From: a candidate division WWE3 bacterium
GTDB lineage: Bacteria; Patescibacteriota; WWE3; UBA101185; UBA10185
Direction: 5' to 3'
NCBI GenBank assembly: GCA_003599255.1
Contig: QZJF01000017.1
Span: 113,278 to 177,277, forward strand
Length of the DNA stretch: 64,000 nucleotides
Position 1 is the stretch's first letter, and the number at the start of each line of letters is the position of its first letter. A program made the translations under genes and the position numbers. The notes beneath the pieces are model-generated. The model was not told where the DNA came from, ran no database searches, and was given only the letters and a program-made list of their open reading frames with translations. Of this stretch, positions 5,318 through 57,405 are shown piece after piece.

Positions 5318-6039
5318 TCTCCGATCAATACCGCTTTTACGATAAGCCTTTTTGCTTTTGTGCCTGCCGGCCAGCAGGTCATTAATGTTACTGTCGATTC
5401 ATTAAGGTATTTTGGTTTATACTCCGCAAGGGGATTTATTTTTTCCGTGGGTAATATCTCAAGACCCTCTACCCGATACTTTAAAGTCTTATCCTTATAA
5501 TCTATGGTGAATTCGTCTCCGGTTTCAAGCCTATCCAGTGTGGAAAAGATAGTTTTGTAATTTTTTGGGTTATAAAACCAGGGCAAGACAGAATGTCCGT
5601 ATATAAACGCATTACCTACTTCTCCCGGCACCGATGAGCCTTTGTAATGACCCAACGCGGTATCAGGACTTAGAGTAGGCGCATTCGTTTCAACTAACGC
5701 CTTTTCTATTTTAAGTTTAGGAATTGTAATATAAGAATACTTTGGTACGTCATTTTCCTGCGCGTCGACATTGTTCTGTGTTTCGAGCTCGGTGAATTCA
5801 AAGTCACTAAAGCCGCTTGCAATCCCGAGTACGCTTGATGCTACGGGGGCGGAAATCTCGTCTTGTGTTTTGAAATAAACAAGCGGATACACTACCTGCG
5901 TTCCCAATATTATAAAACCCAAAGCTAGGAGTAATCCGGGCATAACTCTGGATTTAAACAGAAACTGTTTGTTTACGGTCCTGTAAATAGGGTCAAACGA
6001 CTCATCTTTTATATATATCTTGGGTTTAAAGGCAGCCAT
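5314..6039 (-). CDS. Sortase family transpeptidase
   Basis: N-terminal TM anchor; catalytic His in IYGHSVLP, catalytic Cys in TLMTCWPAGT, and conserved Arg in KRLIVKAV. About 240 aa, typical for sortases. Confidence 0.75.
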   Translation of the reverse strand: MAAFKPKIYIKDESFDPIYRTVNKQFLFKSRVMPGLLLALGFIILGTQVVYPLVYFKTQDEISAPVASSVLGIASGFSDFEFTELETQNNVDAQENDVPKYSYITIPKLKIEKALVETNAPTLSPDTALGHYKGSSVPGEVGNAFIYGHSVLPWFYNPKNYKTIFSTLDRLETGDEFTIDYKDKTLKYRVEGLEILPTEKINPLAEYKPKYLNESTVTLMTCWPAGTKAKRLIVKAVLIGD

Positions 6040-9351: not shown

Positions 9352-9577
9352 CGGTGGGACATATAGTTTGTAATTTTTTTATGTCCAGCTTGTTAATTCT
9401 GGGGTCCAGTTCGACGGAAAAGCCGATGCCTTTGTCCCCCCTGCCTCTCAGTACTCTGATTAGGGAGCCCTCGAAGCCCACTTTTTGAAGTTGCCGCTGT
9501 GCTTCAAGTACGCAAAGTTCACAACCTATGCATTTATTTGGAAATGTTACTTTCAAAATCATTTTAAAATTATCCAA
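9305..9577 (-). CDS. Small ferredoxin-like 4Fe-4S protein
   Basis: CIGCELCVLEA (CxxCxxC) plus a distal ICPTG (CP) motif. Overlaps the pgk stop by 8 nt and the AOR-like gene by 47 nt, indicating translational coupling. Confidence 0.6.
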   Translation of the reverse strand: MDNFKMILKVTFPNKCIGCELCVLEAQRQLQKVGFEGSLIRVLRGRGDKGIGFSVELDPRINKLDIKKLQTICPTGVFTISEEDSDEFNQ

Positions 9578-10532
9578 GTGCTTCTATGCCTGGCAGGGTT
9601 TTCTTAACCAAGAATTCCAGCATGGATCCACCTCCTGTTGAAACGAAGCTGAACTTTTCCAAGAGTCCCACTCTGTTAGCAGCTGCCACAGTGTCTCCGC
9701 CTCCTATCAAAGAAAAACAATTTGGATTTCCTGTTATTGCCTCTGCGATGGACTTAGTACCTAAGAGATATTTATCTTTTTCGTAAAATCCCATGGGACC
9801 GGCCCATAAAACTGTTTTAGCTGTGCTTATGATATCCACATATTTGCGCACGGTTTCGGGACCTATATCTAACTGGTTTTCGGCATAGTCAAGGGGAAGT
9901 ATCAGATTTTGAGGTATTTCATCTGTCCAATCAAGTCCGATCTTTCCTCCTATTAAAACGTAATCCGCAAGCTGAATAAATTTTGAAACGGTGGGTTTTT
10001 TGCTTTCCAATTTTGCTCCCCCTATAACAACAACAAACGGTTTTTCAGGGGAGTCCAGTATTTTTGTAAGGTGTTGAATTTCTGATTCAAGTCTAAACCC
10101 CGCAAAAGCAGGAAGGATTTTCGGTAGTTGCGCAATAGAAGCGTGTCTCCTGTGCGAAGTTGAGAAATTTTCGTTTACATAAATATCTGCCTTATCTGCC
10201 AATTCCCGAGCGTATTGTTCGTCATTATTTTCTTCCCGTATGTCAAACCTCAGATTTTCCAGTAAAACATAACCGCTAGTTCCAAGCTGCGTGTCAAAAA
10301 AGCTTTTTAAATGTCTTGTACTCAATATATCGTCGACTTTACCGTGTGGGCTACCCATATGACCCCCGAAAATAGGAATACCCCCCTTTTCCACTATAAA
10401 CTTAGTGGTAGGTAGCAGGCCTTCCAGTCTGTATGTTTCTTTTATCACCCCATTTTCTATTGGGACGTCCAGGTCTGCTGCAACAAAGACCCTAGTTCCT
10501 ATTTGTATAGGTGCATCTTTAATGGATTTCAT
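9570..10532 (-). CDS. pgk: Phosphoglycerate kinase (compact form)
   Basis: RVFVAADLDVP near the N-terminus; LENLRFDIREE, GGGDT and STGGGSMLEFLVKKTLPGIEAL motifs. Short at 320 aa. Confidence 0.85.
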   Translation of the reverse strand: MKSIKDAPIQIGTRVFVAADLDVPIENGVIKETYRLEGLLPTTKFIVEKGGIPIFGGHMGSPHGKVDDILSTRHLKSFFDTQLGTSGYVLLENLRFDIREENNDEQYARELADKADIYVNENFSTSHRRHASIAQLPKILPAFAGFRLESEIQHLTKILDSPEKPFVVVIGGAKLESKKPTVSKFIQLADYVLIGGKIGLDWTDEIPQNLILPLDYAENQLDIGPETVRKYVDIISTAKTVLWAGPMGFYEKDKYLLGTKSIAEAITGNPNCFSLIGGGDTVAAANRVGLLEKFSFVSTGGGSMLEFLVKKTLPGIEALG

Positions 10533-25414: not shown

Positions 25415-25780
25415 ATGCCTAGGTTTCTTTATGCATTGATTTTCTCAACATTTATAGTTTGGTTTTGCTTAATTTGGGTTGGGAGTACCTACATGCCGGA
25501 CACCCTACTGACTATCGGGATGTTTTTAACATTATTGTTTTTTGCACTTAGTCTTACATTTACAACAATTATCTTTTTGATTTTTCACAAAACTCACAGC
25601 AGACTTTCAGCCCCCAAAAAACTTCCGGGTAGAAGTTTAAAATACGGATTTTTTATGGGCCTTGTAGTTGCAGGGACTTTAGGTTTCAAAGCTTTCGATC
25701 TCATCAACCCGCTAAATTACGGTTTATTTTTAGTATTCTGCATACTGATTTATTTTCAGCTGCGAAGTCCGAAAATTTAG
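25415..25780 (+). CDS. Hypothetical membrane protein (4 TM)
   Basis: Hydrophobic 121-aa ORF with no motif. Confidence 0.3.
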   Translation: MPRFLYALIFSTFIVWFCLIWVGSTYMPDTLLTIGMFLTLLFFALSLTFTTIIFLIFHKTHSRLSAPKKLPGRSLKYGFFMGLVVAGTLGFKAFDLINPLNYGLFLVFCILIYFQLRSPKI

Positions 25781-35601: not shown

Positions 35602-36786
35602 TTACTCTGTCACTTCGACATAATCTGCAGAGACCCAGCCTTCTACTGTATCCGAAACCCTGATTTTTACCCAGCCTGTTGTTTCTTCCAGGACAGGATA
35701 ATCGGTGCCGACGTTCACACGAGCTATCTCGGTTCCGTTAAGGCCGGCAATGTCACGGACTCGCAGCCACCCGGTACCTGTTTCTATTACCTTTGCCTTT
35801 TTACCACCAATTCCTGCCGCGGTTTGAAATGTCTGCAATGTCGTCTTAGCTTCAGGAGTTAGCCCAGCCCCATCTGACATTCGCCCGAGATACGCTCCTT
35901 TATCAACGTCTTTGAAGTTTTTATAGTCGTCTTTGTTTTCTACAATATTGCCCTCGTTATCAAAGATATTTCCTTTAAAATCTAAGAAGTAATCAAATAA
36001 AGGTTCCTTATTTACGCCAAGATCAGCAATGCTTATTCCCCGGGTCTTGTTCCAGTAATATACTGCACTCGCCCAGCTTTGGGTGTCAGAGACAACGTTT
36101 ACATTGTCTGAGGAAAGATCGTATAAATTGTCGCTTCCTTCAAAAGCCCTTACCTTTGACGGCACAGGTACGGGAAATAGTTTCATAGAAATATTCAGAG
36201 TGTACCCTTTTTTAATGTTAATTCTCGCAGTTTGAGACTCATATCCCGGGAATTCAACCCGTAAATCATATTCACCTTCAGACAATTTGTCTGAAGAGTA
36301 AGGAGTATTATCAACTTCTGAATTATCAATAAATACCATTGCGTCAGATGGTTCGGACAATATTCTTATCACATTGTCTGATTTTTCCTTTTCAAACCAG
36401 AACAACTGGCCGGAAGAGAACATATCGGAAATGCCCAGATCCCGGAAAATCCCAACGGTGTGTATATATTTTTTGTCGTTGGGTATGAAATCAATGGTAG
36501 TTTCATATGTTCTTCCGCCTGCGGAAATGGTAATTTTATTCTCGCCCGGGGCGATTTCTTTGTTGCTATAGGGGGTTGTTCCTACCTTTTCTCCGTTTAG
36601 CGACACATCCGCTTCTGTGTTAAGTACATCTACAGTTAAGGCAGCTTTGCCTTTTAAGTTATCAAGATTCTTAAGGACCTCGGTTCCAAAGTAAATGACA
36701 AGACCTATTCCGGCAATAGCCAGTACATAAAGTATGATGTTAGAAAGCTTATTTGAATTGTTGTTTGAGATTGTTGATACAGACAT
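35602..36786 (-). CDS. PEGA-domain surface protein with C-terminal bacterial SH3 (SH3b) domain
   Basis: Start revised to the ATG at 36786; the track ORF extends to 36939 only by translating the antisense of a tRNA. N-terminal TM, repeated PEGA-like segments (SEPSDAMVFIDNSEVDNTPY, VEFPGYESQT), and a C-terminal GWLRVRDIAGLNGTEIARVNVGTDYPVLEETTGWVKIRV (SH3b-like). Confidence 0.6.
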   Translation of the reverse strand: MSVSTISNNNSNKLSNIILYVLAIAGIGLVIYFGTEVLKNLDNLKGKAALTVDVLNTEADVSLNGEKVGTTPYSNKEIAPGENKITISAGGRTYETTIDFIPNDKKYIHTVGIFRDLGISDMFSSGQLFWFEKEKSDNVIRILSEPSDAMVFIDNSEVDNTPYSSDKLSEGEYDLRVEFPGYESQTARINIKKGYTLNISMKLFPVPVPSKVRAFEGSDNLYDLSSDNVNVVSDTQSWASAVYYWNKTRGISIADLGVNKEPLFDYFLDFKGNIFDNEGNIVENKDDYKNFKDVDKGAYLGRMSDGAGLTPEAKTTLQTFQTAAGIGGKKAKVIETGTGWLRVRDIAGLNGTEIARVNVGTDYPVLEETTGWVKIRVSDTVEGWVSADYVEVTE

Positions 36787-36845
36787 TCCGCTAGTATATA
36801 AGGTATCATGTTGATGGTACAATATCAATTGTCCTTTGGGCACCC

Positions 36846-36919
36846 GGCCTGGTCGCCAAGTGGTAAGGCAAGGGTCTGCAAAACCCTTATCAGGGGTTCG
36901 ATTCCCCTCCAGGCCTCCA
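36846..36919 (+). tRNA. tRNA-Cys (anticodon GCA)
   Basis: 74-nt cloverleaf read by hand: acceptor GGCCTGG/CCAGGCC, D-arm GCC-AAGTGGTAA-GGC, anticodon stem AGGGT/ACCCT with loop CTGCAAA (anticodon GCA), T-arm AGGGG-TTCGATT-CCCCT, discriminator T, encoded CCA. Confidence 0.85.
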
Positions 36920-36962
36920 ATGTTTATCTTGTAAAACACGTATTATTACCTATAATAACAAC

Positions 36963-44944: not shown

Positions 44945-45349
44945 TTAGTTCAGGGAATCCAATACTTGGTTGACGATTTTATCGGCTTCTTTGTTTTTAT
45001 CTCTAAGAATGTGGGTATAGGAGACCGTTTTAAATTTTTTCTCAATTGATTTAGTCTTTTCCCAAAGCACCTGCATCCGCTCGTTTTTAACTTTATATAC
45101 CCCTTTCAATTGATTTACTACAAATTCGCTGTCAAGGTAACAATCAACTATCGAAGCCTTCTTTTCCAGAGCGGCGGATAAGCCCTCGATAATTGCTTCA
45201 TACTCGGCTTCGTTGTTAGTTTTCTCCCCGATGTATTTCCCGATTTCCTTAATAACTGTACCCTCGTGATTTTTGATGACAACTCCTATTGCGGCTGGTC
45301 CGGGATTACCCCTTGCTCCGCCGTCAGTGTTAAGTACTAATCTGATCAT
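44945..45349 (-). CDS. rnhA: Ribonuclease HI
   Basis: TDGGARGNPGPAAIGVVI, NNEAEYEAIIEGL, DSEFVVNQ and DKNKEAD match the DEDD catalytic motifs of type-1 RNase H. Confidence 0.8.
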   Translation of the reverse strand: MIRLVLNTDGGARGNPGPAAIGVVIKNHEGTVIKEIGKYIGEKTNNEAEYEAIIEGLSAALEKKASIVDCYLDSEFVVNQLKGVYKVKNERMQVLWEKTKSIEKKFKTVSYTHILRDKNKEADKIVNQVLDSLN

Positions 45350-45951
45350 TTTTTAAAATACTCCTTGAATGAAATAAACAAAATACCTGCTATCAATCCC
45401 AATCCAAACCCGGCGGATAAGTTAATCCAGATAGATTTGTATTCTTTTTTTACTACCGGTTCGTCGGTGATCTTGGATATGCTTAAATTTGCGTCACCAG
45501 ATTTATTTATGTCGACCGTTGTATCAATTAATGATGATGAGAGGGATTCCCAAAGACCTTTTGACTCCTCATGTGTATTGCCTTTAACTGTAAGTGAGAT
45601 TAACTGGGGGCCGTCCTTATTAACCGAGATAAAACGCTGATATTTTCTAAGGGTAACTTCATTTACTGGGACATTAAGTTTAGCTAAAGCCAAGGTTCTT
45701 AAATCTACGCTTTCGAGCAAAGCCGCTACGGTGTTTGTATAAGAAAGTGCGGTTTGTTGTCCGTAATATCCTTCATACGTAAAATAATTGCTGCTGTTTT
45801 CAGTAGTTCTTTGTATGTAAAAGGATCCTGTAGAAATATATTTGGCGGGTATGTTGTAAAGTACTAATCCGAGGCCCGTTCCGACCAATACGAACATAAC
45901 CAAAGACCTTATTTCTTTTTTTAATTTTTTTATCAGATCTTTCAGTTCCAT
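45346..45951 (-). CDS. Wzz-like / polysaccharide chain-length-determinant-like bitopic membrane protein
   Basis: TM helices near both termini flank a roughly 150-aa external domain. Assigned by topology alone. Confidence 0.35.
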   Translation of the reverse strand: MELKDLIKKLKKEIRSLVMFVLVGTGLGLVLYNIPAKYISTGSFYIQRTTENSSNYFTYEGYYGQQTALSYTNTVAALLESVDLRTLALAKLNVPVNEVTLRKYQRFISVNKDGPQLISLTVKGNTHEESKGLWESLSSSLIDTTVDINKSGDANLSISKITDEPVVKKEYKSIWINLSAGFGLGLIAGILFISFKEYFKK

Positions 45952-46042: not shown

Positions 46043-49000
46043 ATGCCGAAGAAAAATGTAATTAAAAAATCTGCCATGGTACCTACTGCGCTTATTGCGG
46101 GTGGCGCCGGTTTCATAGGGTCTCACTTATGCGAAGCACTTCTTTCACGTGGGGCACGTGTAATTGTTCTTGACAATTTCAACACCGGCAAAGAAATTCA
46201 TATAAATCACCTTTTGCAAAATCCTAATTTTGCCCTTTATAACGTCGATATAAATACTGGGCTTCCGCCCGAAATCGAAAGTGTGGATTACATATTTCAT
46301 CTGGCGGGATTAGAAGAATATCTATATAGCAAGGAAAGTGTGAACTTGAACTCGCTTCTGACCAATGCTCTCGGCACTAAAAACTTATTGGATCTTGCCC
46401 AGAGATCTCAAGCAAAATTCCTTTTGGTCTCCAGCATTGACGTATACGAAGGTAGGATGTCACAACTTGAACTCGAAGAATACTTCGGTAGCACAAAAAT
46501 TGATGAGAACAAGTACATGCTCACTGAGGCAAAGAGGTATGCCGAAGCGCTTGTTTGGGAGTATTACAAGAAAAATGATACGGACTTGAGAATTGTCCGG
46601 TTGCCGGAAATTTTTGGTCCCAGAATGGATTTGTCCGCCAGCGGCAGCTTGGGCATGTTTCTAAAAGACCTGATTGAGCATCGCGATATCACAGTTTACG
46701 GGGAGGGATCTAACAAGGAATATTACCTTTACATTACAGATGCGATTTCCGGGATTTTGAAGACATTGTTCGGCGATAAATCCAAGGGAAATATTTATTC
46801 GTTGGTCTGGAATGTTCCGACAACGGTTCTTCAACTTGCTTATGTTGTAAAATCTGTTGCCGATAGAGAAGTAAATATTGTATTTAAAAACAATACTTCG
46901 AAAGATAACTACAGACCGAATCCCAAAATACCAGACTCATTCAACCTCCGCCAGCTCGGTTGGGAACCACGCATGGATATAAAGGACGGAATAGTCAAGT
47001 CGCTAGAATATTTCGGATATAAACCAAACGCGCACAGTTTCAAACCGGCGGAACTGATTGAAAAAAAGACCTCAATCACTCAGGAGTTACCGAAAGAGGA
47101 AACAGGTGAGATTTTTACTTTGCAAGATGTAAAGGAACCAGAGAAGGAAATTGCAGTTCCGGTTCTTCACGAGATTTCCGAGCCCGCACCCCCGGCGGGC
47201 CCGTCCGAACCGGTTCAGTCGATCCAGAGCGCTCCGGTGACCGCTGAAAATCCTTACGGTAATCTTCAAAGTTTTCACACCGGACAGCCTGAGATAGCAG
47301 TGAAACAAAAACAAAAAATTAAGCTGCTGAATTTTGGAAAATTATTCTCAGTAAAAGTCTTAAGTATTTTCGGCGTATTGTTTTCGGCAATGCTAATATT
47401 TTTTGCTCTTCCCGGTGTACAGACATATTTCTATACCAGAGCAAGTATGAACTCAATGTCAGCACTGGCAACATCGGCCGGCCAACTCGATTCGGCGGGT
47501 GTACGGTCAAACGCACGCAGTTCTTATCAAAATCTTGTAAAAGCTAAAAATTCATTCGCCAATCTCAAGTGGTTCTTTTTAGTATCGGGAAAACAAAGCC
47601 AATTTGAAAGTATGGATAAACTTTATAGCTCGTTGGCTTACTTCTCAAAATCCGGATATCAGATGGCGGAGACCATAGAACCGTTTGAAAATCTTTGGGA
47701 AGTTGTGCGTCCGGACACGGCGGAGGAACTCGATCCCGCGAGCTTTGAAAGTGTTAAATCCAATGTAGATCAGGCAAAAAACACTTTCCAGCTTGCCCTG
47801 GCTGATTTTAAGCAGGTTAACATTCAGGATTTGCCCGTACAAGTCAGGGAAAAAGCTGTTGAATATCAGAAAGTTTTAGACATAACTTCGAAAGGTTTAG
47901 ATATGGCCGCTCCTGTGCTTTCTTCTTTTCCAAACATATTGGGTGCGGATGAATCTAAAAAATACATGATCCTGTTTCAAAACTCTAACGAAATAAGACC
48001 TACCGGTGGATTCATCGGGTCATATGGTTTGTTGACTTTTGAAAAGGGAAAAATAAAAGATCTATTGATAGACGATATATACAATCCGGATGGACAAATA
48101 GAATTGCGGAATATAAATGTTGCACCCCCTGAACAAATTAAAGAATTTCTTAACGAAGAAAGATTGTATATAAGAAATGCAAATTGGGATCCGGATTTTC
48201 CGGTCTCAGCCAATACGATTTCTGATCTTTATTTTAAAGTAACAGGAGAGAGTCTCGACGGGGTTATCGCAGTTGATCTATATTTTGTTCAGAATATTCT
48301 AAAAGCTACCGGGCCAATATTTTTAACTGCCTATAATGAAGAAATTAATGCCGAAAATCTTTATGAACGGGCTGAGTTTCACAGCGAGTTCAATTACGAG
48401 AACGGTTCGGACAGCAAACGATCTTTTCTGACTGTTTTAGGAAGCAAGCTTCTTGAAAAAATATTCTCGTTATCAAGAGAACAACTTCCGCAGCTATTTA
48501 CCGAAATGGGGTACGCACTCAATGACAGACATTTACTAATAACGCTGGCAAACGACCCCCTAAACGCTTTATTGGAGGAACAGCATTGGAATGGAGGTGT
48601 TGTTGACACAACAAGTGATTATCTCTATGTGGTAAATGCAAATGTGGGCGGAACCAAAGCAAATTATTATGTAAAAAATAAAATGAATTACCACGTGAAG
48701 TCTCTAACCAGGGATGGACTATTGAGAGGGGTTCTCGTTTTGGAATACGTACATACCGGTACAGACGATGCTTGGCCTGGGGGACCTTATGAAAACTATG
48801 TTAGAGTGTTGACCCAGGAAGGATCCAAGTTAACAGGTGCGACATTGAAAGTAAACGATGGAGAGGAAAAAGATGTTCTAAATGAAATAAGGGTATCTAC
48901 TTTGAGTAAGTATAATGTTTTTGGCACAAGTTTTACGCTTAATCCGACTGAAAAAATAACCCTGACAATAGAATATGATTTGCCTGCAGCATTCACATTG

Positions 49001-49198
49001 ACTAAGGAGCAAAAAGAATACGCATTGTATTGGCAGAAACAATCCGGGACTCATCATGACGAATATGAATTTTCGTTTGACGTGCCGTTCGGTTTTGAGA
49101 TCTCAACAACCACGGAAGGTTTAGTTAGGGAGGATGGTACGTTAAAGTCCATTGGGTCTCTTAATGAAGACAAAAAGTTTTATGCTAAACTTCAGTGA
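46043..49198 (+). CDS. Giant fusion protein: N-terminal NAD-dependent sugar epimerase/dehydratase (UDP-glucuronate decarboxylase-like) + Pro-rich linker + TM helix + ~600-aa extracytoplasmic domain of unknown function
   Basis: Residues 15-330 carry GGAGFIGSHL (Rossmann), YSKES-type and Y..AK catalytic positions typical of extended SDRs. Then a PAPPAGPSEPVQSIQSAPV linker, a TM helix (LFSVKVLSIFGVLFSAMLIFFAL), and a large external domain with a conserved-looking QNSNEIRPTGGFIGSYG segment. Confidence 0.6.
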   Translation: MPKKNVIKKSAMVPTALIAGGAGFIGSHLCEALLSRGARVIVLDNFNTGKEIHINHLLQNPNFALYNVDINTGLPPEIESVDYIFHLAGLEEYLYSKESVNLNSLLTNALGTKNLLDLAQRSQAKFLLVSSIDVYEGRMSQLELEEYFGSTKIDENKYMLTEAKRYAEALVWEYYKKNDTDLRIVRLPEIFGPRMDLSASGSLGMFLKDLIEHRDITVYGEGSNKEYYLYITDAISGILKTLFGDKSKGNIYSLVWNVPTTVLQLAYVVKSVADREVNIVFKNNTSKDNYRPNPKIPDSFNLRQLGWEPRMDIKDGIVKSLEYFGYKPNAHSFKPAELIEKKTSITQELPKEETGEIFTLQDVKEPEKEIAVPVLHEISEPAPPAGPSEPVQSIQSAPVTAENPYGNLQSFHTGQPEIAVKQKQKIKLLNFGKLFSVKVLSIFGVLFSAMLIFFALPGVQTYFYTRASMNSMSALATSAGQLDSAGVRSNARSSYQNLVKAKNSFANLKWFFLVSGKQSQFESMDKLYSSLAYFSKSGYQMAETIEPFENLWEVVRPDTAEELDPASFESVKSNVDQAKNTFQLALADFKQVNIQDLPVQVREKAVEYQKVLDITSKGLDMAAPVLSSFPNILGADESKKYMILFQNSNEIRPTGGFIGSYGLLTFEKGKIKDLLIDDIYNPDGQIELRNINVAPPEQIKEFLNEERLYIRNANWDPDFPVSANTISDLYFKVTGESLDGVIAVDLYFVQNILKATGPIFLTAYNEEINAENLYERAEFHSEFNYENGSDSKRSFLTVLGSKLLEKIFSLSREQLPQLFTEMGYALNDRHLLITLANDPLNALLEEQHWNGGVVDTTSDYLYVVNANVGGTKANYYVKNKMNYHVKSLTRDGLLRGVLVLEYVHTGTDDAWPGGPYENYVRVLTQEGSKLTGATLKVNDGEEKDVLNEIRVSTLSKYNVFGTSFTLNPTEKITLTIEYDLPAAFTLTKEQKEYALYWQKQSGTHHDEYEFSFDVPFGFEISTTTEGLVREDGTLKSIGSLNEDKKFYAKLQ

Positions 49199-49216
49199 AC
49201 AATGTAGAATTAATGT

Positions 49217-50818
49217 ATGCCTTTAGCTGATTTACCACAAACAAATAAACAGCACGCGGTCCCTCAAAACATAATGGATGTTGAATTCAAGCTGATAGGG
49301 GATTTGACGATGAGACAATTTGCTTATCTGATGATTTGCGGCGGTATTAGTTATTTGGCCGCAGTCTCCGTAATAGGATTGTTCAAATGGCCTATTGTGG
49401 TGTTTTTTACATTACTGGGTTTAGGACTGGCTTTTGTTCCGATACAGGAAAGAGGTCTGGACGAATGGATAGTCAACTTTTTTAAAGCAATATATTCACC
49501 TACACAACGGATATGGCGAAAAGAGCCTTCGGTGCCTTCCGCGTTTATGTACGAAAATATTCAGTTAGTACGTCAGGAAATGATAACGCTGGCACCGACA
49601 TCCAGCAGAAGAAAACTGGAAGATTATTTGGAATACCAGCTTAAAGAGGAAAAAGAAGACCCTCTTGATATTCCGGAGAAGGAGTACATTATGAAAGTAA
49701 GGGAAATGGTAGGTATTATAGAGCCTGCGGAGCCTGCTGTTTCAGTTACATATGAGGAAGAGGAAGTGCAGGAAGTTGAAGAGCCCTCTGCTTTACCGCC
49801 GCAGGAACAACCTCAGTTCCAAGGAGAACCTCAAAAGCCAGGTGAGGAAACAAAACCCGAAAAACCGATAGTTCAAAAACCGGAACCGGCTTCTGATGAA
49901 AAGAAAAAAACTCCGGAAGAATTTGAAAAGAAATCTCACAGGATTAAAAGAGCGCGTGAGAGAGAAGCAAGAAGACAGCAAAGCGTTTCGGTAACACCGC
50001 TGACTCCGGATATGCATTCCGGAAGAAAGTTTGTAAACCTTCTGCCGTATGGCGGGGAACTCATTCTACCGATTCGTGGCGAAAAAGTATTACAAACTTC
50101 CGAACAGTTGGAGATTGAGGATGATATTCAGGAAAAAGCCGACAAACTTCAGAAACTTCTCGAACAAATAAAAGGCAGCGGTGCTATTAAGAAAGAAATT
50201 ACACCGGAGGTCCGGGTAGAACCCGAAAAGCTGGATGTTCAGCAAGGCGGAGAAGTCAATGTCGAAGCAGTTGAGGTAATAGAAGGTTTGAAACAAGAAA
50301 AGGATAGACTTTCCCAGGAGATCGAAAATCTTAGGATATCTAAAGAAACCGAGACTACTCCGAGTGTGGCAGAAGCAAAAGAAGAAATGATCAGGAGACT
50401 TCAGGCTGAGAAAGAAAAGACCCAATCTGAGTACGAGTCCCTGCAAAGACAGATTCTTGATTTACAAAATAAACTTAAAGAAAAACAAGAATTCGATTCC
50501 GGTCCCCAGGCCCCTTCAAAACCTGTGTATGCAAAAATACAGCCATTAACAAATAGGCCAAATGTGGTTTCGGGGGTTGTTAAGAAACAGGACGGAACCG
50601 TACTTGAGGGTGTATTATTAATCATTAAGAATCAAAAAGGAGAGGCGGTTAGGGCTTTGAAGTCAAATACCTTAGGACAGTTTACTCTTACAACGCCTTT
50701 ATCTAACGGAGTTTATACGGTAGAAGTTAGCTCTAATAATGGCACTGCATCCTTTGATATAATTTCTGTAGAGGCAAAAGGAGAAATAATCCCTCCAATT
50801 GAATTGGTGGGCAAATAA
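49217..50818 (+). CDS. PrgI/VirB3-like membrane protein with a long coiled-coil/Pro-Glu-rich extension and C-terminal carboxypeptidase-regulatory-like beta domain
   Basis: Residues 20-110 (MDVEFKLIGDLTMRQFAYLMICGGISYLAAV... two TM helices ...IYSPTQRIW) resemble the PrgI family of Gram-positive conjugation systems. These are followed by an E/P/K-rich segment, heptad-like coiled coils, and a C-terminal VVSGVVKKQDGTVLEGVLLIIKNQKGEAV...GVYTVEVSS segment. Confidence 0.5.
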   Translation: MPLADLPQTNKQHAVPQNIMDVEFKLIGDLTMRQFAYLMICGGISYLAAVSVIGLFKWPIVVFFTLLGLGLAFVPIQERGLDEWIVNFFKAIYSPTQRIWRKEPSVPSAFMYENIQLVRQEMITLAPTSSRRKLEDYLEYQLKEEKEDPLDIPEKEYIMKVREMVGIIEPAEPAVSVTYEEEEVQEVEEPSALPPQEQPQFQGEPQKPGEETKPEKPIVQKPEPASDEKKKTPEEFEKKSHRIKRAREREARRQQSVSVTPLTPDMHSGRKFVNLLPYGGELILPIRGEKVLQTSEQLEIEDDIQEKADKLQKLLEQIKGSGAIKKEITPEVRVEPEKLDVQQGGEVNVEAVEVIEGLKQEKDRLSQEIENLRISKETETTPSVAEAKEEMIRRLQAEKEKTQSEYESLQRQILDLQNKLKEKQEFDSGPQAPSKPVYAKIQPLTNRPNVVSGVVKKQDGTVLEGVLLIIKNQKGEAVRALKSNTLGQFTLTTPLSNGVYTVEVSSNNGTASFDIISVEAKGEIIPPIELVGK

Positions 50819-51521
50819 TATGGCGGAAAAGATTGTATCTACATCGCAAGATCACTTGGATATACTTGAAATCAAGAATGATATGGTAGTTTTGAAAAAT
50901 GGGGTGGTTTGTGCTGTTCTGCAGACTACGGCGGTTAACTTTGATCTCCTTTCTGAAATCGAACAAGACGCAATTATTGCCGCGTTTTCTATGCTGCTTA
51001 ACTCAATAACATTTCCGGTCCAAGTAGTGTTGCGATCTAAAAAACTCGACATCTCAAAATATATCGAAAAAATACAGAGAGTAGAAAGCAAAATCAGCGA
51101 TCCTTTAATGAAACATCAAGCTGAGGCATACAGGAAGTTTGTTCAGGAAGTTATAAGACAGAACGATGTTCTTGATAAAAAATTCTATGTGGTTGTTCCT
51201 TCGGGTGGGGGAGTTGACGGAGACCCAAACAGCGGTGCCTTTGATTGGCTCGCACGCCTTGCGGGTACACATAATAAGAGGATTGATGTAAATGTAGATA
51301 AAACCCTTAAAGACGCATCAATTCAGTTAGTTCCAAAAGTAGATCACGTCATAAAAGAGTTTAATAGAATAGGCGTCAGATCCAGGCAACTGACAACCCA
51401 GGAGTTAGTGGAAATTTATTTTGATATTTACAATCCAAGCAGTATTCATGGACAAAGAATCCGAACAAATATAGATGATTATACGACGGCGGTTGTAAAT
51501 CCGGCGATTATTGAGGAATAA
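50799..51521 (+). CDS. VirB4/TraE N-terminal-domain-like protein (possibly a detached first segment of the downstream ATPase)
   Basis: HLDILEIKNDMVVLKNGVVCAVLQTTAVNFDLLSEIEQDAIIAAFSMLLNSITFPVQV resembles the N-terminal segment of Gram-positive VirB4 homologues. The stop lies 2 nt before the next ATG, in another frame. Confidence 0.45.
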   Translation: MNWWANNMAEKIVSTSQDHLDILEIKNDMVVLKNGVVCAVLQTTAVNFDLLSEIEQDAIIAAFSMLLNSITFPVQVVLRSKKLDISKYIEKIQRVESKISDPLMKHQAEAYRKFVQEVIRQNDVLDKKFYVVVPSGGGVDGDPNSGAFDWLARLAGTHNKRIDVNVDKTLKDASIQLVPKVDHVIKEFNRIGVRSRQLTTQELVEIYFDIYNPSSIHGQRIRTNIDDYTTAVVNPAIIEE

Positions 51522-51523
51522 GA

Positions 51524-53938
51524 ATGGCAAAAAAGAAATTTAATTTATTTACAATGTTCAAAAAAAATAAACCCGTGGAAGGTCAGGAAGGCTCTCCGGA
51601 AGGAGCTACTTCCGGTGGAAAAACGCCTGCACAGATCCTCGCCGAAGGGATGGTTAATGTACGCGATATCATTGCGCCATCTGCGATGGAAATTGACTTT
51701 AATCATGTAAAGATCGGAAACACTTTTTACAGAACTCTTTTTGTCTCAGGGTACCCTAGGTTTGTTGGTGCCAACTGGATGTCTCCCGTCATAAATTTTG
51801 ATCACTCTTTGGACATTTCGATGTTTTATTATCCGGTTAAATCCAAGATGATTCTCGATGACCTTAGAAAGAAAATTACCGAGTTGGAAGCAACTATAAT
51901 GACCACCAGGGAAAAAGGGAGAATAATTGACCCTGTTGTTACCGCAGCATTGGAAGATGCTAATGCTCTTCAAGAACAGTTGGTCAAGGGTGTTGAAAAA
52001 TATTTTAAATTTTCCTTTTATATAACTATACCCGCGGCTTCTCAGGAGGAACTTGAAACGGTTACAGCCAGGCTGGAATCCACATTGGGTTCGCTGCTGT
52101 TAATCTCGAAAACAGCTTCGCTCCAAATGGAAGAAGCATTTCAGTCTACTATTCCTGCGGGATTGGACAAGCTTTTGATTACACGAAACATGGATACTAC
52201 CAGTTTGGCTACCACTTTTCCTTTCACTTCTTCGGACCTTACCATGGAGGAGGGAATTATGTACGGAATCAATCGACACAATGGTTCCCTTGTTATTTTC
52301 GAGCGGTTCTCAATGGAAAACGCGAACACAGTTGTCTTTGCGAAATCCGGTTCAGGTAAATCTTATTTCGTTAAATTAGAAGCTTTGCGACTAATGGTTT
52401 TTGGTGCGGAGGTCATGATCATTGACCCGGAGGAGGAATACAGATCTTTGTGTGACGCCGTCGGCGGCAATTATATAGACTTTTCGGCTAATTCACCTGC
52501 TAAAATTAACCCTTTTGACTTGTCGGGAATTGCAGTCGAGGGCGAGAACGAACTTGGCCAGAAACTTATTGCGTTAATTACGTTGTTTAAACTGATGTTG
52601 GGAGGTTTAACTCCTACCGAAGAAGCAATTCTGGACCGTGCACTTATTGAAACTTACAGAATAAAGGGTATTACCACAGATCCGGATACGCAGTCTACAA
52701 AAGAGCCTCCGGTTATGGAAGATCTGTACAAGATACTTTTGGGAAGTGATGAACCTGAAGCCAGGAGCATGGCAGAGAGACTGGAAAAATTCATTAAAGG
52801 TTCAATGACCGGTATTTTTGATGCCCAATCCAATATTGATTTAAACAGCAAGATGACCGTTTTCTCTACCAAAAATCTTGAAGAAGCATTGAGACCCATC
52901 GCGTTTTATATGATCCTCGATTTTATTTGGACAAGAATCAGAAAGGATCTAAGAAAGAGGATTTTGATTGTTGAAGAGGCCTGGTATCTTATGCAGAACG
53001 AAGATAGTGCCCGCTTTATTTACGGTATAGCAAAGAGAGCAAGAAAATATTATCTAGGATTAACTACGATTTCACAGGATGTTGACGATTTCTTAACGTC
53101 CGAGTACGGCAAGGCGATTGTTACCAACTCATCAATTCAGGTTTTGCTTAAACAGCACCCTGCGGCAATTGATAAAGTAGCGGAAACATTTTATTTATCG
53201 GAGGGAGAAAAAAGATTACTTCTTTCGGCTGCAGTAGGTGAAGGGCTTTTCTTTGCGGGGGCAAATCACGTGGCAATCAAGGTTATGGCTTCCGATGCGG
53301 AGCATAAGCTGATTACAACAAACCCGGAGGAGATTTTAAGACTCAAAGCGGAAGGGAAGATTCAGTCGAAGCAGCCAACAAAACCTGTATACAAACCCTA
53401 TACCCCACCGTCAGATCCCGGTAAATATACAACTTATGATTCTGAAGGTAATGTAAGACCAGAGTTTAAACCCGGTGCCGTTCCTCCGACACCCGCCCCG
53501 ATTCCCGCTCAACCAAAGCCGGAAGAACAAACGGTACAAAATCAGAATAAGGACACCGTTGAATCTGTAGCGCAACCTTTACCGAAAGAGGAAGAGACTC
53601 AGGAAGAAAAAATGCCCACAGCGGAACAGATTTTAAGTTCCGTTCAAGCAACAAAGGCAGAGAATTCACAACCTCCTGCCACTTCTCCTCAGGAGAACAA
53701 GAGTACTCCGAATCAGGGAACTCAGGGTAATGAACAAATAATAAAAAGTACGTTGACCGGTGAATCGATGCAGAAGAACCCACCGCAGGTTCCTCCGGCC
53801 AAACCTTCCTGGTTAAATTCCTCAAATCAACAGGTTGTCCAGAACAAGCCGCAGGAACAGCAGAGTCCTACTAACGAACAAAACAAAGAATCGGAAAAGA
53901 ACATGGATTCTCCTCAGGGTACGATAAGTCTCACCTAG
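51524..53938 (+). CDS. VirB4/TrbE/PrgJ-family type IV secretion ATPase with ~200-aa Pro/Gln/Asn-rich C-terminal tail
   Basis: Walker A (VVFAKSGSGKSYFV) and Walker B (ILIVEEAWYLMQ) are present. The N-terminal region (GNTFYRTLFVSGYPRFVGANWMSPV) is like the VirB4 membrane-proximal domain. Residues from about 600 to 804 are low-complexity (PTKPVYKPYTPPSDPGK...QPKPEEQTVQNQNK...). Confidence 0.75.
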   Translation: MAKKKFNLFTMFKKNKPVEGQEGSPEGATSGGKTPAQILAEGMVNVRDIIAPSAMEIDFNHVKIGNTFYRTLFVSGYPRFVGANWMSPVINFDHSLDISMFYYPVKSKMILDDLRKKITELEATIMTTREKGRIIDPVVTAALEDANALQEQLVKGVEKYFKFSFYITIPAASQEELETVTARLESTLGSLLLISKTASLQMEEAFQSTIPAGLDKLLITRNMDTTSLATTFPFTSSDLTMEEGIMYGINRHNGSLVIFERFSMENANTVVFAKSGSGKSYFVKLEALRLMVFGAEVMIIDPEEEYRSLCDAVGGNYIDFSANSPAKINPFDLSGIAVEGENELGQKLIALITLFKLMLGGLTPTEEAILDRALIETYRIKGITTDPDTQSTKEPPVMEDLYKILLGSDEPEARSMAERLEKFIKGSMTGIFDAQSNIDLNSKMTVFSTKNLEEALRPIAFYMILDFIWTRIRKDLRKRILIVEEAWYLMQNEDSARFIYGIAKRARKYYLGLTTISQDVDDFLTSEYGKAIVTNSSIQVLLKQHPAAIDKVAETFYLSEGEKRLLLSAAVGEGLFFAGANHVAIKVMASDAEHKLITTNPEEILRLKAEGKIQSKQPTKPVYKPYTPPSDPGKYTTYDSEGNVRPEFKPGAVPPTPAPIPAQPKPEEQTVQNQNKDTVESVAQPLPKEEETQEEKMPTAEQILSSVQATKAENSQPPATSPQENKSTPNQGTQGNEQIIKSTLTGESMQKNPPQVPPAKPSWLNSSNQQVVQNKPQEQQSPTNEQNKESEKNMDSPQGTISLT

Positions 53939-53946
53939 ATTAAAGA

Positions 53947-55056
53947 TTAAATCTGCATAGGCATTATTATATGTATGAAGTTCTCGTGTGCGTCTGAGAG
54001 AAGTAGGCATGGGGAGATATTTCCGTTAGTTCTAAAGTGAATTCTCTCGGTTTTTATGTTGTTCAGGTAGTCCAAAAGATATCTGGAACTAAAGGCAATT
54101 TCCAGCAGATCCCCCTCTATTTCCGCTCCCAGTTCACTAATGTGTTCCCCGGCCTCTTCTGCAAGAGAAGAGATTCTAATTAAGTTTTCTTCGGGGTCAA
54201 ATCTGACTTTAATCGCATTATTGCCCTCTTTAGCAAACACATTTGTTAATTTTACGGCTTCAACAAACTCGTCGGTTGAAAAAGAGGCGCTTAAGACTTT
54301 TTCTGAAGGGATAATTTTTTTATAATCAGGATACTGTCCGTCCAAGATTCTCGTGGCAACAGTAGTGTCCTCCGAACTAAACAAAGCAAGATTCTCACCT
54401 TCATTAAGAGCGAATTTTATTTTTTCCTGGGAGCCGGCAAAGATTTTGCTTACTTCAAGCATGGTTCTTGCCGGTATAACTGCCGAAAAATTTCCGACGG
54501 AGCTTTCAATTTTTAGTATCTTTTCTGAAAGTCTAAAACCGTCAGTGGATGCAATTGTGAGTACTCCTTCCTGATAATTCAAGAATATTCCGGTAAAAAT
54601 CGGCCTACTCTCGTCATTTCCGGAAGCGAATGCAACATATGCAACGTCATCACCGAATTCCTTAGGATCAAGTTCAAAATATGAAACATCTTCCGGAAAC
54701 ACAGGCAATTCCGGATATTCATCGGCGCTGATACCGTTGAATTTAGATTTGGTTTTTTCCGATGTTATGTGGAGTACATCGTGGTTGAGGGATGCTTTGA
54801 TTGTCCCAGGTCTTAATGTGGAGACAAAGTCTTTTATCAGTTTTGCAGGTATTGTAACGCTACCCTCTTCTTCGACCGAGCACGGGACATAGGTTGTAAC
54901 GGCGGTTTCAAGATTGGTTGCGGCGAGTTTGAGTCTGCCGTTTTCCGCAACAAATAAAATATTCGAAAGTATAGGAAGGGAACCCTTGTTAGGTACTGCA
55001 CGGCTGACGATCTGCAGACCTTTTTCTAAATTTTCCTGTAGGCATGTAAATTTCAT
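53947..55056 (-). CDS. dnaN: DNA polymerase III beta subunit (sliding clamp)
   Basis: MKFTCLQENLEKGLQIVSRAV...LPILSNILFVAENGRLKLAATNLE and the three-domain length (369 aa). Confidence 0.85.
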   Translation of the reverse strand: MKFTCLQENLEKGLQIVSRAVPNKGSLPILSNILFVAENGRLKLAATNLETAVTTYVPCSVEEEGSVTIPAKLIKDFVSTLRPGTIKASLNHDVLHITSEKTKSKFNGISADEYPELPVFPEDVSYFELDPKEFGDDVAYVAFASGNDESRPIFTGIFLNYQEGVLTIASTDGFRLSEKILKIESSVGNFSAVIPARTMLEVSKIFAGSQEKIKFALNEGENLALFSSEDTTVATRILDGQYPDYKKIIPSEKVLSASFSTDEFVEAVKLTNVFAKEGNNAIKVRFDPEENLIRISSLAEEAGEHISELGAEIEGDLLEIAFSSRYLLDYLNNIKTERIHFRTNGNISPCLLLSDAHENFIHIIMPMQI

Positions 55057-55514
55057 GACGTTTTATTTTTTGGTTTTAGGTGAACTCTTCTGTTGCGTCC
55101 CTCACCTTGACTCTCTGATATTACATCGTCGTATTCGGAAATTAAAGTGTGAACTTGACGTCTTTCCCAGGGGTTCATATACGGAAGAATCACCTCGCTT
55201 TGAAAGAATCTTACTTTATCAATGGATCTTCGCGCTATGCTGTGTAATCTTTCAATTCTTTGACTGTTGTAATCATTAATGTCTAACAAAAGTACGGGCC
55301 ACTCGTTACTCTTTTTGTAGTAAATATGGGTAAGAATGCTTTGAAGTGCATCCAGCGATTGTCCTCGATACCCGATGAGAAAACTCAAATCGTCTCCTTG
55401 AATACTAATTTTTATGTTTTCATCACCATCTACCGATATGTCCGTTTGCGGTTTGATATCAAAATGGTGGAGCAAGTCGTCCAGTATTGATTTAACTAAT
55501 TCTTTTTTATCCAT
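55053..55514 (-). CDS. jag: Jag/KhpB-like RNA-binding protein (KH + R3H domains)
   Basis: KH-like GYRGQSLDALQ and the R3H motif region (MNPWERRQVH). Lies immediately downstream of yidC. Confidence 0.75.
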   Translation of the reverse strand: MDKKELVKSILDDLLHHFDIKPQTDISVDGDENIKISIQGDDLSFLIGYRGQSLDALQSILTHIYYKKSNEWPVLLLDINDYNSQRIERLHSIARRSIDKVRFFQSEVILPYMNPWERRQVHTLISEYDDVISESQGEGRNRRVHLKPKNKTS

Positions 55515-56291
55515 TTATTTTGCAAATTTCAGCTTTTTTAACAGAGGGGTTAATCCGCCCCATCCGCTGCTAAAATAATTTTGTACTATTGTAAATAGTG
55601 TTGTAACTACTATATAAAGCACAACACCCGCGGGCAGAGTAATGCCTATTATCACATTCATGACCGGCATCATATATAAAGATTGCTGTTGCATTTGAAA
55701 TGCGATGTCATCCGATTTGGGCTCGGTTGCTTTTGCCGCTTTCTCTGCTTTCTCAACGTAGGGCAGTGTCATCTTTGAGGCTATGAACTGCAGTATACCC
55801 GATAAAACCGCCAAAATAAAGTAAGGGTCGGGTTTTGACAAATCCATATATAGAAAATTTGTATTTACGGTTTCTCCGGCACTGATCTTGAACTGATCCG
55901 AATATATTTTACTGTTGATTAAGGAATAATCCCCATTAATTGTGAAAAGGCGAATTACATTGAACAACGCTATAAGAACAATAAGCATGGCAATTTGAGA
56001 CAGACATCCTGATGCCGGATTAATCCCGTGTTTTTTAAACAATGCCATCTGCATCTCAGCCATCTTTTGCTTGTCGTGTTTGTATTTTTTCTTCAGTTCA
56101 TCTAGTTCAGGCTGAAGATCCCTCTGTTTCTTCATGCTTTTAAGGGAAGGGTTCATAACAGGAACAAGAATAAACCTTATTAATATTGTTAAAACTATGA
56201 TTGCTACACCGAGATCTCCTGCCACTCTATAAAGTACAACAAGAACATTTAACATCGGATTCACAAGTAATGTGTTCCAGAGTAATGACAT
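55515..56291 (-). CDS. yidC: Membrane protein insertase YidC/Oxa1 (short Gram-positive/CPR type)
   Basis: LVPVMNPSLKSMKKQRDLQPELDELKKKYKHDKQKMAEMQMALFKKHGINP and five TM helices. rnpA-yidD-yidC-jag synteny. Confidence 0.8.
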   Translation of the reverse strand: MSLLWNTLLVNPMLNVLVVLYRVAGDLGVAIIVLTILIRFILVPVMNPSLKSMKKQRDLQPELDELKKKYKHDKQKMAEMQMALFKKHGINPASGCLSQIAMLIVLIALFNVIRLFTINGDYSLINSKIYSDQFKISAGETVNTNFLYMDLSKPDPYFILAVLSGILQFIASKMTLPYVEKAEKAAKATEPKSDDIAFQMQQQSLYMMPVMNVIIGITLPAGVVLYIVVTTLFTIVQNYFSSGWGGLTPLLKKLKFAK

Positions 56292-56312
56292 AACTTTACC
56301 ATTGTAGGACTT

Positions 56313-56528
56313 TTACTCTACAGGATCAAATCCTCCTTCAGATAATGGATTACATCTTAAGATGCGGTACCCTCCCATTATGCTTCCTTTTAGTACGCCA
56401 TATTTTTCAATAGCCTCATAAGTATAATCAGAACAACTCGGCACAAAACGGCAGGTATGTATTCCGAAGTTAACGGGTGACAAGAATTTCTTGTAAAGTT
56501 TTATTAATGTCAGTGCTAATTTCCGCAT
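56313..56528 (-). CDS. yidD: Membrane protein insertion efficiency factor YidD
   Basis: [19 protein letters not shown]...[19 protein letters not shown] matches the YidD/DUF37 signature. Start taken at the internal Met (56528); the track's start at 56567 overlaps rnpA more extensively. Confidence 0.7.
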
Positions 56529-56829
56529 AACTTTTTTCCAGAATACCCTTTTTAGCGTAGATGACAAGCCATAGATTCTCAGGCACTTCTATATCAGAAT
56601 TTTTCAGCATATTCCTGATAGACTCTCTGATTAATCTTTTGGGTCTGTTTCGTTTTACTGCTTTGTTATGTACCGAGTTAGGCACGACTATGCCTATTTT
56701 TAAAGGCCCCTTATAATTCCTTGGAACAACGGCAAATACAGTAATAAACTCCCCGGTAAATTTTTTGCCGTATTTTTTTGTAACGTTAAATTCAAAGTTA
56801 GAGGTAAGTCTGTTAGATTTTTTTAGCAT
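56470..56829 (-). CDS. rnpA: RNase P protein component
   Basis: 119-aa basic protein with [13 protein letters not shown]...[24 protein letters not shown], the RnpA RNR-motif region. Positioned between rpmH and yidD. Confidence 0.75.
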
Positions 56830-56849
56830 CAGGGTGTGCTGCGCGAGGC

Positions 56850-57002
56850 TTATTTGCCGTTATACTGTACAACCAAGGCCTTTCGCCCCTTTTGACGTCG
56901 TCTTTTTAATACATTCTTTCCGCCCGGACTCTGCATTTTCTTAAGAAATCCGTGCTTCTTTACTCTTTTTCTTTTTTTTGGTTGCCAGGTTCTTTTAGGC
57001 AT
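56850..57002 (-). CDS. rpmH: 50S ribosomal protein L34
   Basis: [43 protein letters not shown] matches the bL34 consensus (MKRT.QPS..KR.R.HGFR.RM.T..GR.VL..RR.KGRK.L). Only the last 50 codons of the 158-aa track ORF are real. Confidence 0.75.
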
Positions 57003-57084
57003 AACAAGGTTGATCTTAGAGCAAAAAGTCCGAAGCGTCAACCCCGGCGTTAACATTTCCGGTAAATATATTATAATCTCACGT

Positions 57085-57405
57085 ATGATTAAGTTTGATG
57101 ATTTTGCAAAGGTGGACATCCGGGCCGGAAAAGTTCTGATTTGTGAAAAGGTTGAAAAATCCAATAAATTGCTCCGAATGGTAGTTGACTTCGGAGAACT
57201 GGGTGAAAAACAGATTCTGACCGGTTTGGGCGAATTTATCCAACCGGAAGAAATTAGCGGAATAACAGCACTCTTTGTGGTAAATCTGGAGCCAAGAAAG
57301 CTGATGGGATTCGAGTCGGAAGGCATGATAATGGGTACAGATGACGAAACTCCAAAAATCGTGCAGGCTCCTCAAGGTACTTTGCCGGGTACACGAGTAA
57401 TTTAA
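57085..57405 (+). CDS. tRNA-binding domain protein (Trbp111/CsaA-like)
   Basis: [42 protein letters not shown]...[22 protein letters not shown] matches the OB-fold tRNA-binding domain (MetRS C-terminal/EMAP-like). Start chosen at the ATG at 57085; the upstream part of the track ORF overlaps rpmH. Confidence 0.6.

Follow-up and report, generated by a model that had tools for sequence, protein, structure and literature searches.

Type IV secretion systems (T4SSs) of Patescibacteria were surveyed by Quiñonero-Coronel et al. 2025 (PMC12102498), who found that the VirB4 proteins of these bacteria form a clade related to MPF-FATA, that TrsD is the most frequent partner of VirB4, and that PrgI/VirB3 is usually adjacent. 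Relaxases were almost absent in Patescibacteria and coupling proteins seldom nearby, and dnaN, dnaA, rnpA, ksgA and rpmH were enriched around virB4 (PMC12102498). Few machines are known to be indispensable for the epibiotic way of life of these ultrasmall bacteria, and the T4SS is among them: Southlakia epibionticum cannot grow as an epibiont without a homologous T4SS cluster, which has neither a coupling protein nor a relaxase (Wang et al. 2023, PMC10633639). Here we describe a locus of this kind in a stretch of 64,000 nt from candidate division WWE3 (contig QZJF01000017.1 of assembly GCA_003599255.1, positions 113,278-177,277 of the forward strand). "The window" means all 64 kb of this stretch, and all coordinates are positions in it. 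The interval 46043-53938 contains four open reading frames (ORFs), all on the plus strand, and we conclude, with a probability of about 0.85, that it consists of the core of a non-conjugative Patescibacteria T4SS (ORF2, ORF3 and ORF4) and a separate envelope gene (ORF1). These genes and their direct neighbours are the following:

45346-45951, minus strand: Wzz-like protein with two transmembrane (TM) helices, 201 amino acids (aa), divergent from ORF1
46043-49198, plus strand: ORF1, short-chain dehydrogenase/reductase (SDR)-TM-DUF4012 protein, putative envelope-glycopolymer gene, 1051 aa
49217-50818, plus strand: ORF2, membrane anchor of the VirB3/PrgI family, 533 aa
50820-51521, plus strand: ORF3, TrsD-like, detached N-terminal part of VirB4, 233 aa, start ATG 50820
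51524-53938, plus strand: ORF4, VirB4 ATPase, 804 aa
53947-55056, minus strand: dnaN, with three DNA_pol3_beta domains, outside the system and given for context

A preliminary description of this DNA had proposed four co-directional genes, and we confirmed this arrangement; the orthologues stand in the same order, with 50-93% aa identity, in ∼50 species-level genomes. Its domain content was also right according to Pfam (Epimerase and DUF4012 in ORF1, PrgI in ORF2, a P-loop VirB4-like ATPase in ORF4). The gaps are 18 nt between ORF1 and ORF2, 1 nt between ORF2 and ORF3, 2 nt between ORF3 and ORF4 and 8 nt between ORF4 and dnaN. A 20-nt overlap of ORF2 and ORF3 that had been reported turned out to be an artefact of choosing the longest ORF, which starts at TTG 50799. 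ORF3 homologues are uniformly 229-238 aa long (229-235 aa in 120 of 120 close homologues and 230-238 aa in related loci), and because of this we place the start of ORF3 at ATG 50820, 1 nt after the ORF2 stop.

ORF4 belongs to the true VirB4 proteins and not to the FtsK/HerA ATPases, as it scored 380.5 bits against NCBIfam NF045971 ('VirB4-like conjugal transfer ATPase, CD1110 family'; cut-off 325) and its best solved relative was the C-terminal domain of VirB4 (4ag5, E 3.9e-51); TrwK was matched too. In Pfam the protein matched AAA_10 (37.8 bits, cut-off 27.5), P-loop_TraG (111.3 bits, cut-off 25.8) and DUF87, and it matched TIGR00929 VirB4_CagE and TIGR02746 TraC-F-type, both under their cut-offs. 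ORF4 comprises the rest of an N-terminal domain, a P-loop domain (residues ∼237-600) and a disordered, P/Q/S/T-rich tail of ∼190 residues (∼610-804) that is poorly conserved. The Walker A motif AKSGSGKS (∼272-279) has the counterpart AKPGAGKS in 4ag5, while the Walker B motif ILIVEEAW (residues 488-495; 52985-53008) contains a Glu where VirB4 usually has an Asp. A protein of a 'candidate division WWE3 bacterium' has the same sequence as ORF4 (100% identity), and WWE3 or other Patescibacteria supplied the hundred best homologues; the nearest plasmid relatives were found in Bacillota and Actinomycetota (30-38% identity). We also considered ORF4 as a HerA/FtsK protein and rejected this, because the lone match of that kind was a 64-residue DUF87 P-loop (30.5 bits) and all strong matches were to VirB4/TraC.

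The proposal that VirB4 is split was correct: ORF3 is the detached N-terminal part of VirB4. This follows from the tiling of profiles, from fold matches and from a natural fusion. In the alignment of ORF4 to NF045971, residues 43-586 corresponded to profile positions 184-735 of 752; the N-terminal domain is thus incomplete within ORF4, the profile positions before 184 being uncovered, and the missing part corresponds to ORF3. On the profile of the full-length Mbov_0397 VirB4 (VirB4_plasma), ORF3 mapped to positions 112-233 (E 1.8e-10) and ORF4 to positions 292-893. The 14 best Foldseek matches of ORF3 in the PDB were R388 T4SS chains with the size and description of TrwK/VirB4, and residues 8-125 of ORF3 aligned to residues 26-143 of an unsplit 831-aa VirB4 from a Bacillus mycoides plasmid (E 1e-9). 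In the natural fusion (P0412, a metagenomic protein of 787 aa), an ORF3-like N-terminus is followed directly by a region that corresponds to ORF4 50-610 with 64% identity. The split of VirB4 is ancient and family-wide; at the 50% identity level, 2042 representatives make up the ORF3 family. The locus thereby gives clear evidence that TrsD-like proteins correspond to an N-terminus that was detached from VirB4. By sequence ORF3 itself resembles TrsD and probably works like it, and it is a non-member by the TrsD/TraD model NF041427.

Other searches with ORF3 were less informative. No Pfam family matched it above threshold (TraC_F_IV was sub-threshold with E 0.034), and PF26593 is a precomputed annotation on its homologues. 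The ORF3 family profile retrieved low-complexity junk only from the PDB sequences, the C-terminal tails of longer homologues having entered the profile. Alignment of ORF3 to the N-terminus of ORF4 by hhalign was not significant with WWE3-only alignments, and we did not use hhalign for or against the split. As a separate observation, ORF3 aligned twice to the unsplit Bacillus VirB4 (L061 8278-10773; related loci are cited by L numbers), to residues 26-143 and, more weakly, to residues 226-355, which hints at an internal duplication within the N-terminal domain of VirB4.

ORF2 had been described as PrgI/VirB3-like, and the PF12666 (PrgI) search bore this out above the gathering threshold (residues 15-99, 31.1 bits, cut-off 27). 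Two TM helices (38-56 and 58-76) make up a hairpin at residues ∼35-78. With 533 aa, the length of ORF2 is atypical for the PrgI/VirB3 family: residues ∼100-533 (49517-50818) form an E/K/P/Q-rich extension of ∼430 residues that ends in a CarboxypepD_reg-like beta-sandwich (residues 451-509, 31.1 bits, slightly under the cut-off of 32.3). The hairpin is followed by a K/R-rich flank and there is no further TM helix in ORF2; therefore, by the positive-inside rule, the extension is predicted to be cytoplasmic. All WWE3 loci keep the extension (proteins of 448-654 aa) and it is absent in the more distant L049 (205 aa).

To examine conservation we took one genome per species and mapped the proteins of the window onto 56 related loci, nearly all from WWE3. 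The ORF2-ORF3-ORF4 triad was present in every related locus with sufficient flank, with median gaps of 2 and 3 nt (45-52 loci). The preliminary description had expected a conserved four-gene block. This holds for the triad and fails for ORF1, which is absent upstream of the triad in nine WWE3 loci and lies next to the gene for ribosomal protein L25 in L057 and L059. Upstream of the triad some of the nine loci have a tRNA synthetase, and others have a ∼460-aa polytopic membrane protein together with a divergently encoded M23-peptidase protein of ∼1100 aa. The ∼460-aa protein is weakly similar to a Pfam-recognised TrbL/VirB6 protein of L049. Such a VirB6-like protein directly upstream of PrgI, together with the divergent M23-peptidase protein, was found in L032, L039, L040, L041 and L052.

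We then compared the locus with the closest described systems. With the surveyed Patescibacteria T4SSs it shares a virB4 with adjacent TrsD-like and PrgI/VirB3 genes, the lack of a relaxase or coupling protein nearby, a chromosomal position near dnaN/rnpA/rpmH and a monoderm (MPF-FATA-like) ancestry. It differs from them in the ∼430-residue VirB3 extension, the EE of Walker B and the abutting DUF4012 gene, and it differs from the S. epibionticum cluster, which has a VirB6, an array of VirB2-like pilins and a wall hydrolase, whereas the WWE3 locus has none of these within 64 kb. The staphylococcal conjugation genes TrsC (VirB3-like), TrsD and TrsE (VirB4) of the pGO1/pSK41 type likewise encode a small membrane protein, a separate homologue of the VirB4 N-terminus and then VirB4 (PMC12102498); in contrast to the WWE3 triad, they are located in a plasmid transfer operon with a relaxase, a coupling protein, a hydrolase and channel proteins. 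A member of the CD1110 family on the Pontibacillus megaplasmid NZ_CP062975 (L060) has a VirB4 that is 38% identical to ORF4. Upstream of this VirB4 gene, a 274-aa protein with 28% identity to ORF3 (E 2e-30) is encoded, a further result in favour of the split, and there is also a small ORF of 116 aa, which gave no BLASTP alignment to the N-terminus of ORF2. Unlike this window, the Pontibacillus operon has a fuller layout, with a pilin-like gene and genes for a protein of 779 aa and an M23 endopeptidase of 1050 aa. L032, L039-41 and L052 keep a fuller, Pontibacillus-like layout, except that the peptidase gene is downstream and in the same operon in Pontibacillus and divergent in WWE3; the layout with VirB6-like and M23 genes may be ancestral. 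The R388 TrwK/VirB4-TrwM/VirB3 complex (PDB 7o41, 8rtb) shows ∼10-13% sequence identity to the WWE3 proteins, and R388 is a diderm conjugative machine in which VirB4 is not split and which further comprises an outer-membrane core, VirB6/8/10, a coupling protein and a relaxase.

The finding is a rediscovery, in the WWE3 lineage, of the described Patescibacteria T4SS. The arrangement, the missing relaxase and the proximity to dnaN/rpmH/rnpA have already been reported (PMC12102498), and so the 'minimal translocon' is not newly recognised. The locus adds nothing categorically new; it documents the WWE3 version of the system with its invariant VirB3-TrsD-VirB4 triad, in which the long VirB3 extension and the Glu-for-Asp Walker B are lineage features relevant to modelling the complex.

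Pfam scans of all ORFs in the window revealed no relaxase, no coupling protein of the VirD4/TcpA type, no VirB6/TrbL, no VirB8 and no integrase, and tblastn of the window with the VirB6-like and M23 proteins of the relatives found nothing. The absence of VirB6, VirB8, VirD4 and relaxase genes, as first noted, thus holds for the 64 kb. The locus is also not an ordinary conjugative element, as relaxase, coupling-protein and integrase genes are all absent from the window and inheritance of the locus is vertical. Two further regions of the window may be mentioned here. A 121-aa protein with 3-4 TM helices and no family match (25415-25780, plus strand) is weakly similar (E 0.003) to a 128-aa membrane protein encoded directly upstream of PrgI in L044. 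The region 3564-6039, ∼40 kb from the T4SS core, encodes a PilO-like protein (a weak match), single-TM ORFs and a sortase.

The block had been thought to be inserted at the site next to dnaN where dnaA would normally lie. This is wrong, since dnaN is on the opposite strand and converges on ORF4, which places the block at the 3′ end of dnaN. Upstream of dnaN are jag/khpB, yidC, rnpA and rpmH, so that rpmH-rnpA-yidC-jag-dnaN form one co-directional string on the minus strand (53947-57326) with dnaN last; beyond it are miaB, miaA and mltG. The dnaN-jag-yidC-rnpA genes are convergent downstream of the triad in ∼45 WWE3 loci, and dnaA was not found anywhere in the window. In the relative L059, a canonical dnaN-dnaA pair is divergent from rpmH-rnpA-yidD-yidC-jag. 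Comparing this layout with that of the window, which is without dnaA, we conclude that dnaA and dnaN are uncoupled in the WWE3 lineage. An insertion is not supported either: the G+C content of the block (0.40-0.43) matches the rest of the window, a search for att-like repeats flanking the block gave just chance-level short matches inside genes, there is no integrase, and the neighbourhood is syntenic across WWE3. The low-complexity regions contained no tandem repeats. The window is ordinary chromosome, with murJ, a sortase gene, holA, the gene for a LytR-CpsA-Psr (LCP) protein, tpiA, pgk, gap, trx, dacA and ksgA, and further with two UvrD-type helicase genes, FemAB-type genes, rmuC, tatD, alaS, groES/EL, hsp20 and rnhA.

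The triad encodes the cytoplasmic-membrane and ATPase core of a chromosomal T4SS that is characteristic of Patescibacteria and descends from monoderm conjugation machinery of the MPF-FATA type. From the gene content we infer the following mode of action. The PrgI/VirB3 hairpin would sit in the membrane, the N-terminal domain of VirB4 would begin with the TrsD-like protein, and ORF4 would provide the remainder of this domain and the P-loop motor. Together, ORF3 and ORF4 would reconstitute a VirB4 hexamer docked beneath the membrane, and the hexamer would use ATP to assemble and drive a channel, and probably also a VirB2-type pilus, with the other subunits encoded at other places of the genome. 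The most likely role of such a machine, judged from Saccharibacteria, would be contact-dependent exchange with a host cell, either export of effectors or uptake of host macromolecules, and not plasmid transfer; both effector export and macromolecule uptake have been proposed for the system.

Several observations weigh against this explanation of the locus. VirB6, VirB2-like pilins and a wall hydrolase were not found in the window by Pfam or NCBIfam, and with no channel, pilin, hydrolase or coupling protein in the window a complete secretion machine is not demonstrated for this genome. ORF3 scored 30.5 bits (E 2.8e-7) against NF041427, which has a cut-off of 200, and the match covered residues 11-84 alone. 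The hhalign comparison of ORF3 with the N-terminus of ORF4 remained weak with a deeper ORF3 profile (E 0.0065, probability 5.8%). Every WWE3 VirB4 examined has the Walker B Glu, which was seen in each of the 120 close homologues and at 48 loci; DE occurs in two loci that are more distant. The short gap between ORF1 and ORF2 (median 22 nt, 35 loci) makes a functional link possible within the clade. Finally, the role of the Patescibacteria T4SS has been called 'completely unknown' (PMC11665869).

As a variant of the same explanation, the triad could encode a nucleic-acid-uptake motor, like H. pylori ComB or archaeal Ced, that feeds a nucleotide-auxotrophic cell. We regard this variant as possible but tentative. 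ORF4 weakly matched the NCBIfam models CedB (E 5e-11) and CedD (E 1.5e-6), but these matches are far under the cut-offs and are due to the P-loop fold that the proteins have in common. For Saccharibacteria an uptake role has been put forward (PMC11665869), and a 2026 preprint, which describes tubular structures where the cells meet their host, ties VirB4 to the transfer of macromolecules; however, there is no experiment on the substrate of any Patescibacteria T4SS. The window has no relaxase or coupling protein for DNA export, but it is also without a ComEC-like channel or a DNA-binding partner, and nothing in it bears on direction.

The preliminary description had further linked the epimerase fusion ORF1 to the translocon, and we therefore considered its domains and neighbours. 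Pfam identified an Epimerase domain at residues 16-243 (107 bits) and DUF4012 at residues 636-775. ORF1 is composed of a UXS-like SDR domain (1-∼330; 46043-47060), a linker, one TM helix (∼428-470) and an ectodomain (480-1051; 47480-49198). The best PDB match of the SDR family profile was UDP-glucuronate decarboxylase (E 2.6e-50). The SDR domain of ORF1 contains GGAGFIG, Ser130 and Lys164, with a Leu four residues before the Lys, at the position of the Tyr of YxxxK. In the alignment of the fusion family, made without a reference enzyme, the Tyr position is L/H/T, ∼40% of the members have Gln in place of the Lys and ∼1/3 have a degenerate glycine-rich NAD motif; judging from these residues, the SDR domain may be non-catalytic in part of the family.

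The model of the ectodomain (pLDDT 94.5) consists of a helical bundle, an LCP-like alpha/beta core and a beta-sandwich. It contains 24 invariant residues, mostly polar or Gly, e.g. in the motif QNxxEIRPTGGFIGSYG, and the modelled structure suggests that the DUF4012 ectodomain is an uncharacterised extracellular enzyme. We found no sequence-level LCP match for the ectodomain (PF03816 with the conserved Arg/Asp pyrophosphate-Mg site), and in the model the LCP resemblance is at the level of fold, not of family membership. ORF1 differs from the LCP transferases, and from the DUF4012 proteins of Gram-positive EPS/CPS clusters, in its additional helical bundle, its beta-sandwich and the cytoplasmic SDR to which it is fused. 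In ORF1 a cytoplasmic nucleotide-sugar SDR is joined through one TM helix to an extracellular DUF4012 with an LCP-like core.

The divergent Wzz-like gene, whose product resembles polysaccharide co-polymerases, is the conserved partner of ORF1. Its product has a TM helix at each end and matched PF02706 with E 0.0033, and the L002 orthologue scored 28.6 bits, above the cut-off of 25.5. In L057 and L058 a similar-sized ORF (188 aa) stands in the same place upstream of the ORF1 orthologue, the likeness being one of size and position. DUF4012 has been noted as a family common to the Candidate Phyla Radiation (CPR) and Gram-positive bacteria, and in the exopolysaccharide (EPS) cluster of Bifidobacterium longum it adjoins wzz (PMC5412050). 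ORF1 and the Wzz-like gene show the same pairing as this EPS cluster. ORF1 probably functions in making a cell-surface polysaccharide or in attaching polysaccharide to the wall, and the most parsimonious view is that it does so independently of the T4SS. DUF4012, which is enriched in CPR and in Gram-positive EPS clusters, gains a confident structural model with an LCP-like core, an envelope-biology lead that is independent of the T4SS.

Could the epimerase-DUF4012 protein nevertheless be integral to the translocon, so that a four-gene operon links glycan modification or wall remodelling to T4SS assembly? The 18 nt that separate the co-directional ORF1 and ORF2 contain no terminator-like site, and ORF1 is directly upstream of the triad in 35 loci (gap 3-75 nt, median 22 nt). 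However, the same 35 loci are syntenic over the entire groEL-to-dnaN region, including the whole groEL-hsp20-NTase-rnhA-hyp201 stretch, and therefore the adjacency by itself tells us little. Our scan for promoters and terminators gave the same counts as shuffled sequence and was uninformative on co-transcription. It also speaks for a link that monoderm T4SSs need a wall-remodelling partner, that WWE3 loci without ORF1 have M23-peptidase and VirB6-like genes beside the triad, and that the core of the ORF1 ectodomain is wall-enzyme-like (LCP-like) in the model. On the other hand, the lasting neighbours of ORF1 are upstream of it. One is a gene for an RNase H-like protein, and in WWE3 loci the Wzz-like gene is a second. 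The more distant ORF1 orthologues in L057 and L059 have the RNase H-like gene immediately upstream and L25 after them, with no T4SS gene within 8 kb, and L057 additionally retains groES-groEL and the small-ORF neighbours. Since ORF1 occurs with L25 elsewhere and the triad occurs with other upstream genes, ORF1 and the triad are separable units. Bacteria that do not have this T4SS can also carry DUF4012 in their EPS clusters, and neither DUF4012 nor an epimerase is mentioned in the main text and two supplementary files of PMC12102498 (these two files are also without WWE3 and PF01370). We consider an integral role of ORF1 unlikely: it is not a conserved member of the module, and in one WWE3 clade it would just happen to lie 18 nt upstream of the triad, with which it may share a transcript.

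A rewiring specific to the clade appears quite improbable. It would have the ORF2 extension, with the beta-sandwich at its end, serve as a built-in cytoplasmic docking platform that replaces the coupling protein, and co-transcription of ORF1 couple envelope remodelling to assembly, replacing the VirB6 and M23-hydrolase genes of the sister clades.

We rejected as very improbable the reading that the triad is a decayed, non-functional remnant of an integrated conjugative element or plasmid transfer region, stripped of the relaxase, coupling and channel genes: the VirB4 family is named for conjugative elements (CD1110), the nearest VirB4 relatives outside CPR are on monoderm plasmids, there are just three T4SS genes in 64 kb and Walker B has Glu for Asp, but the three genes are intact and conserved in fixed order at 50-93% identity across the ∼50 species-level genomes, the ORF3 family is as large as given above, the position among housekeeping genes is fixed with no integrase, att repeats or composition shift, and a homologous system is essential in a cultured relative (PMC10633639).

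Two other places in the window deserve a comment. At 35602-36939 (minus strand), the longest ORF of a PEGA + SH3_3 protein overlaps a tRNA-Cys gene (36846-36919, plus strand), and the real start of this protein is probably downstream of the tRNA-Cys. Between tpiA and gap (8479-10532, minus strand) we observed three unusual ORFs. The first, of 290 aa, has only the N-terminal domain of aldehyde:ferredoxin oxidoreductase, another, of 90 aa, is Fer4-like, and the remaining one is a pgk that is unusually short with its 320 aa and was matched in three pieces. They may represent truncations, frameshifts or a reduced glycolytic module.

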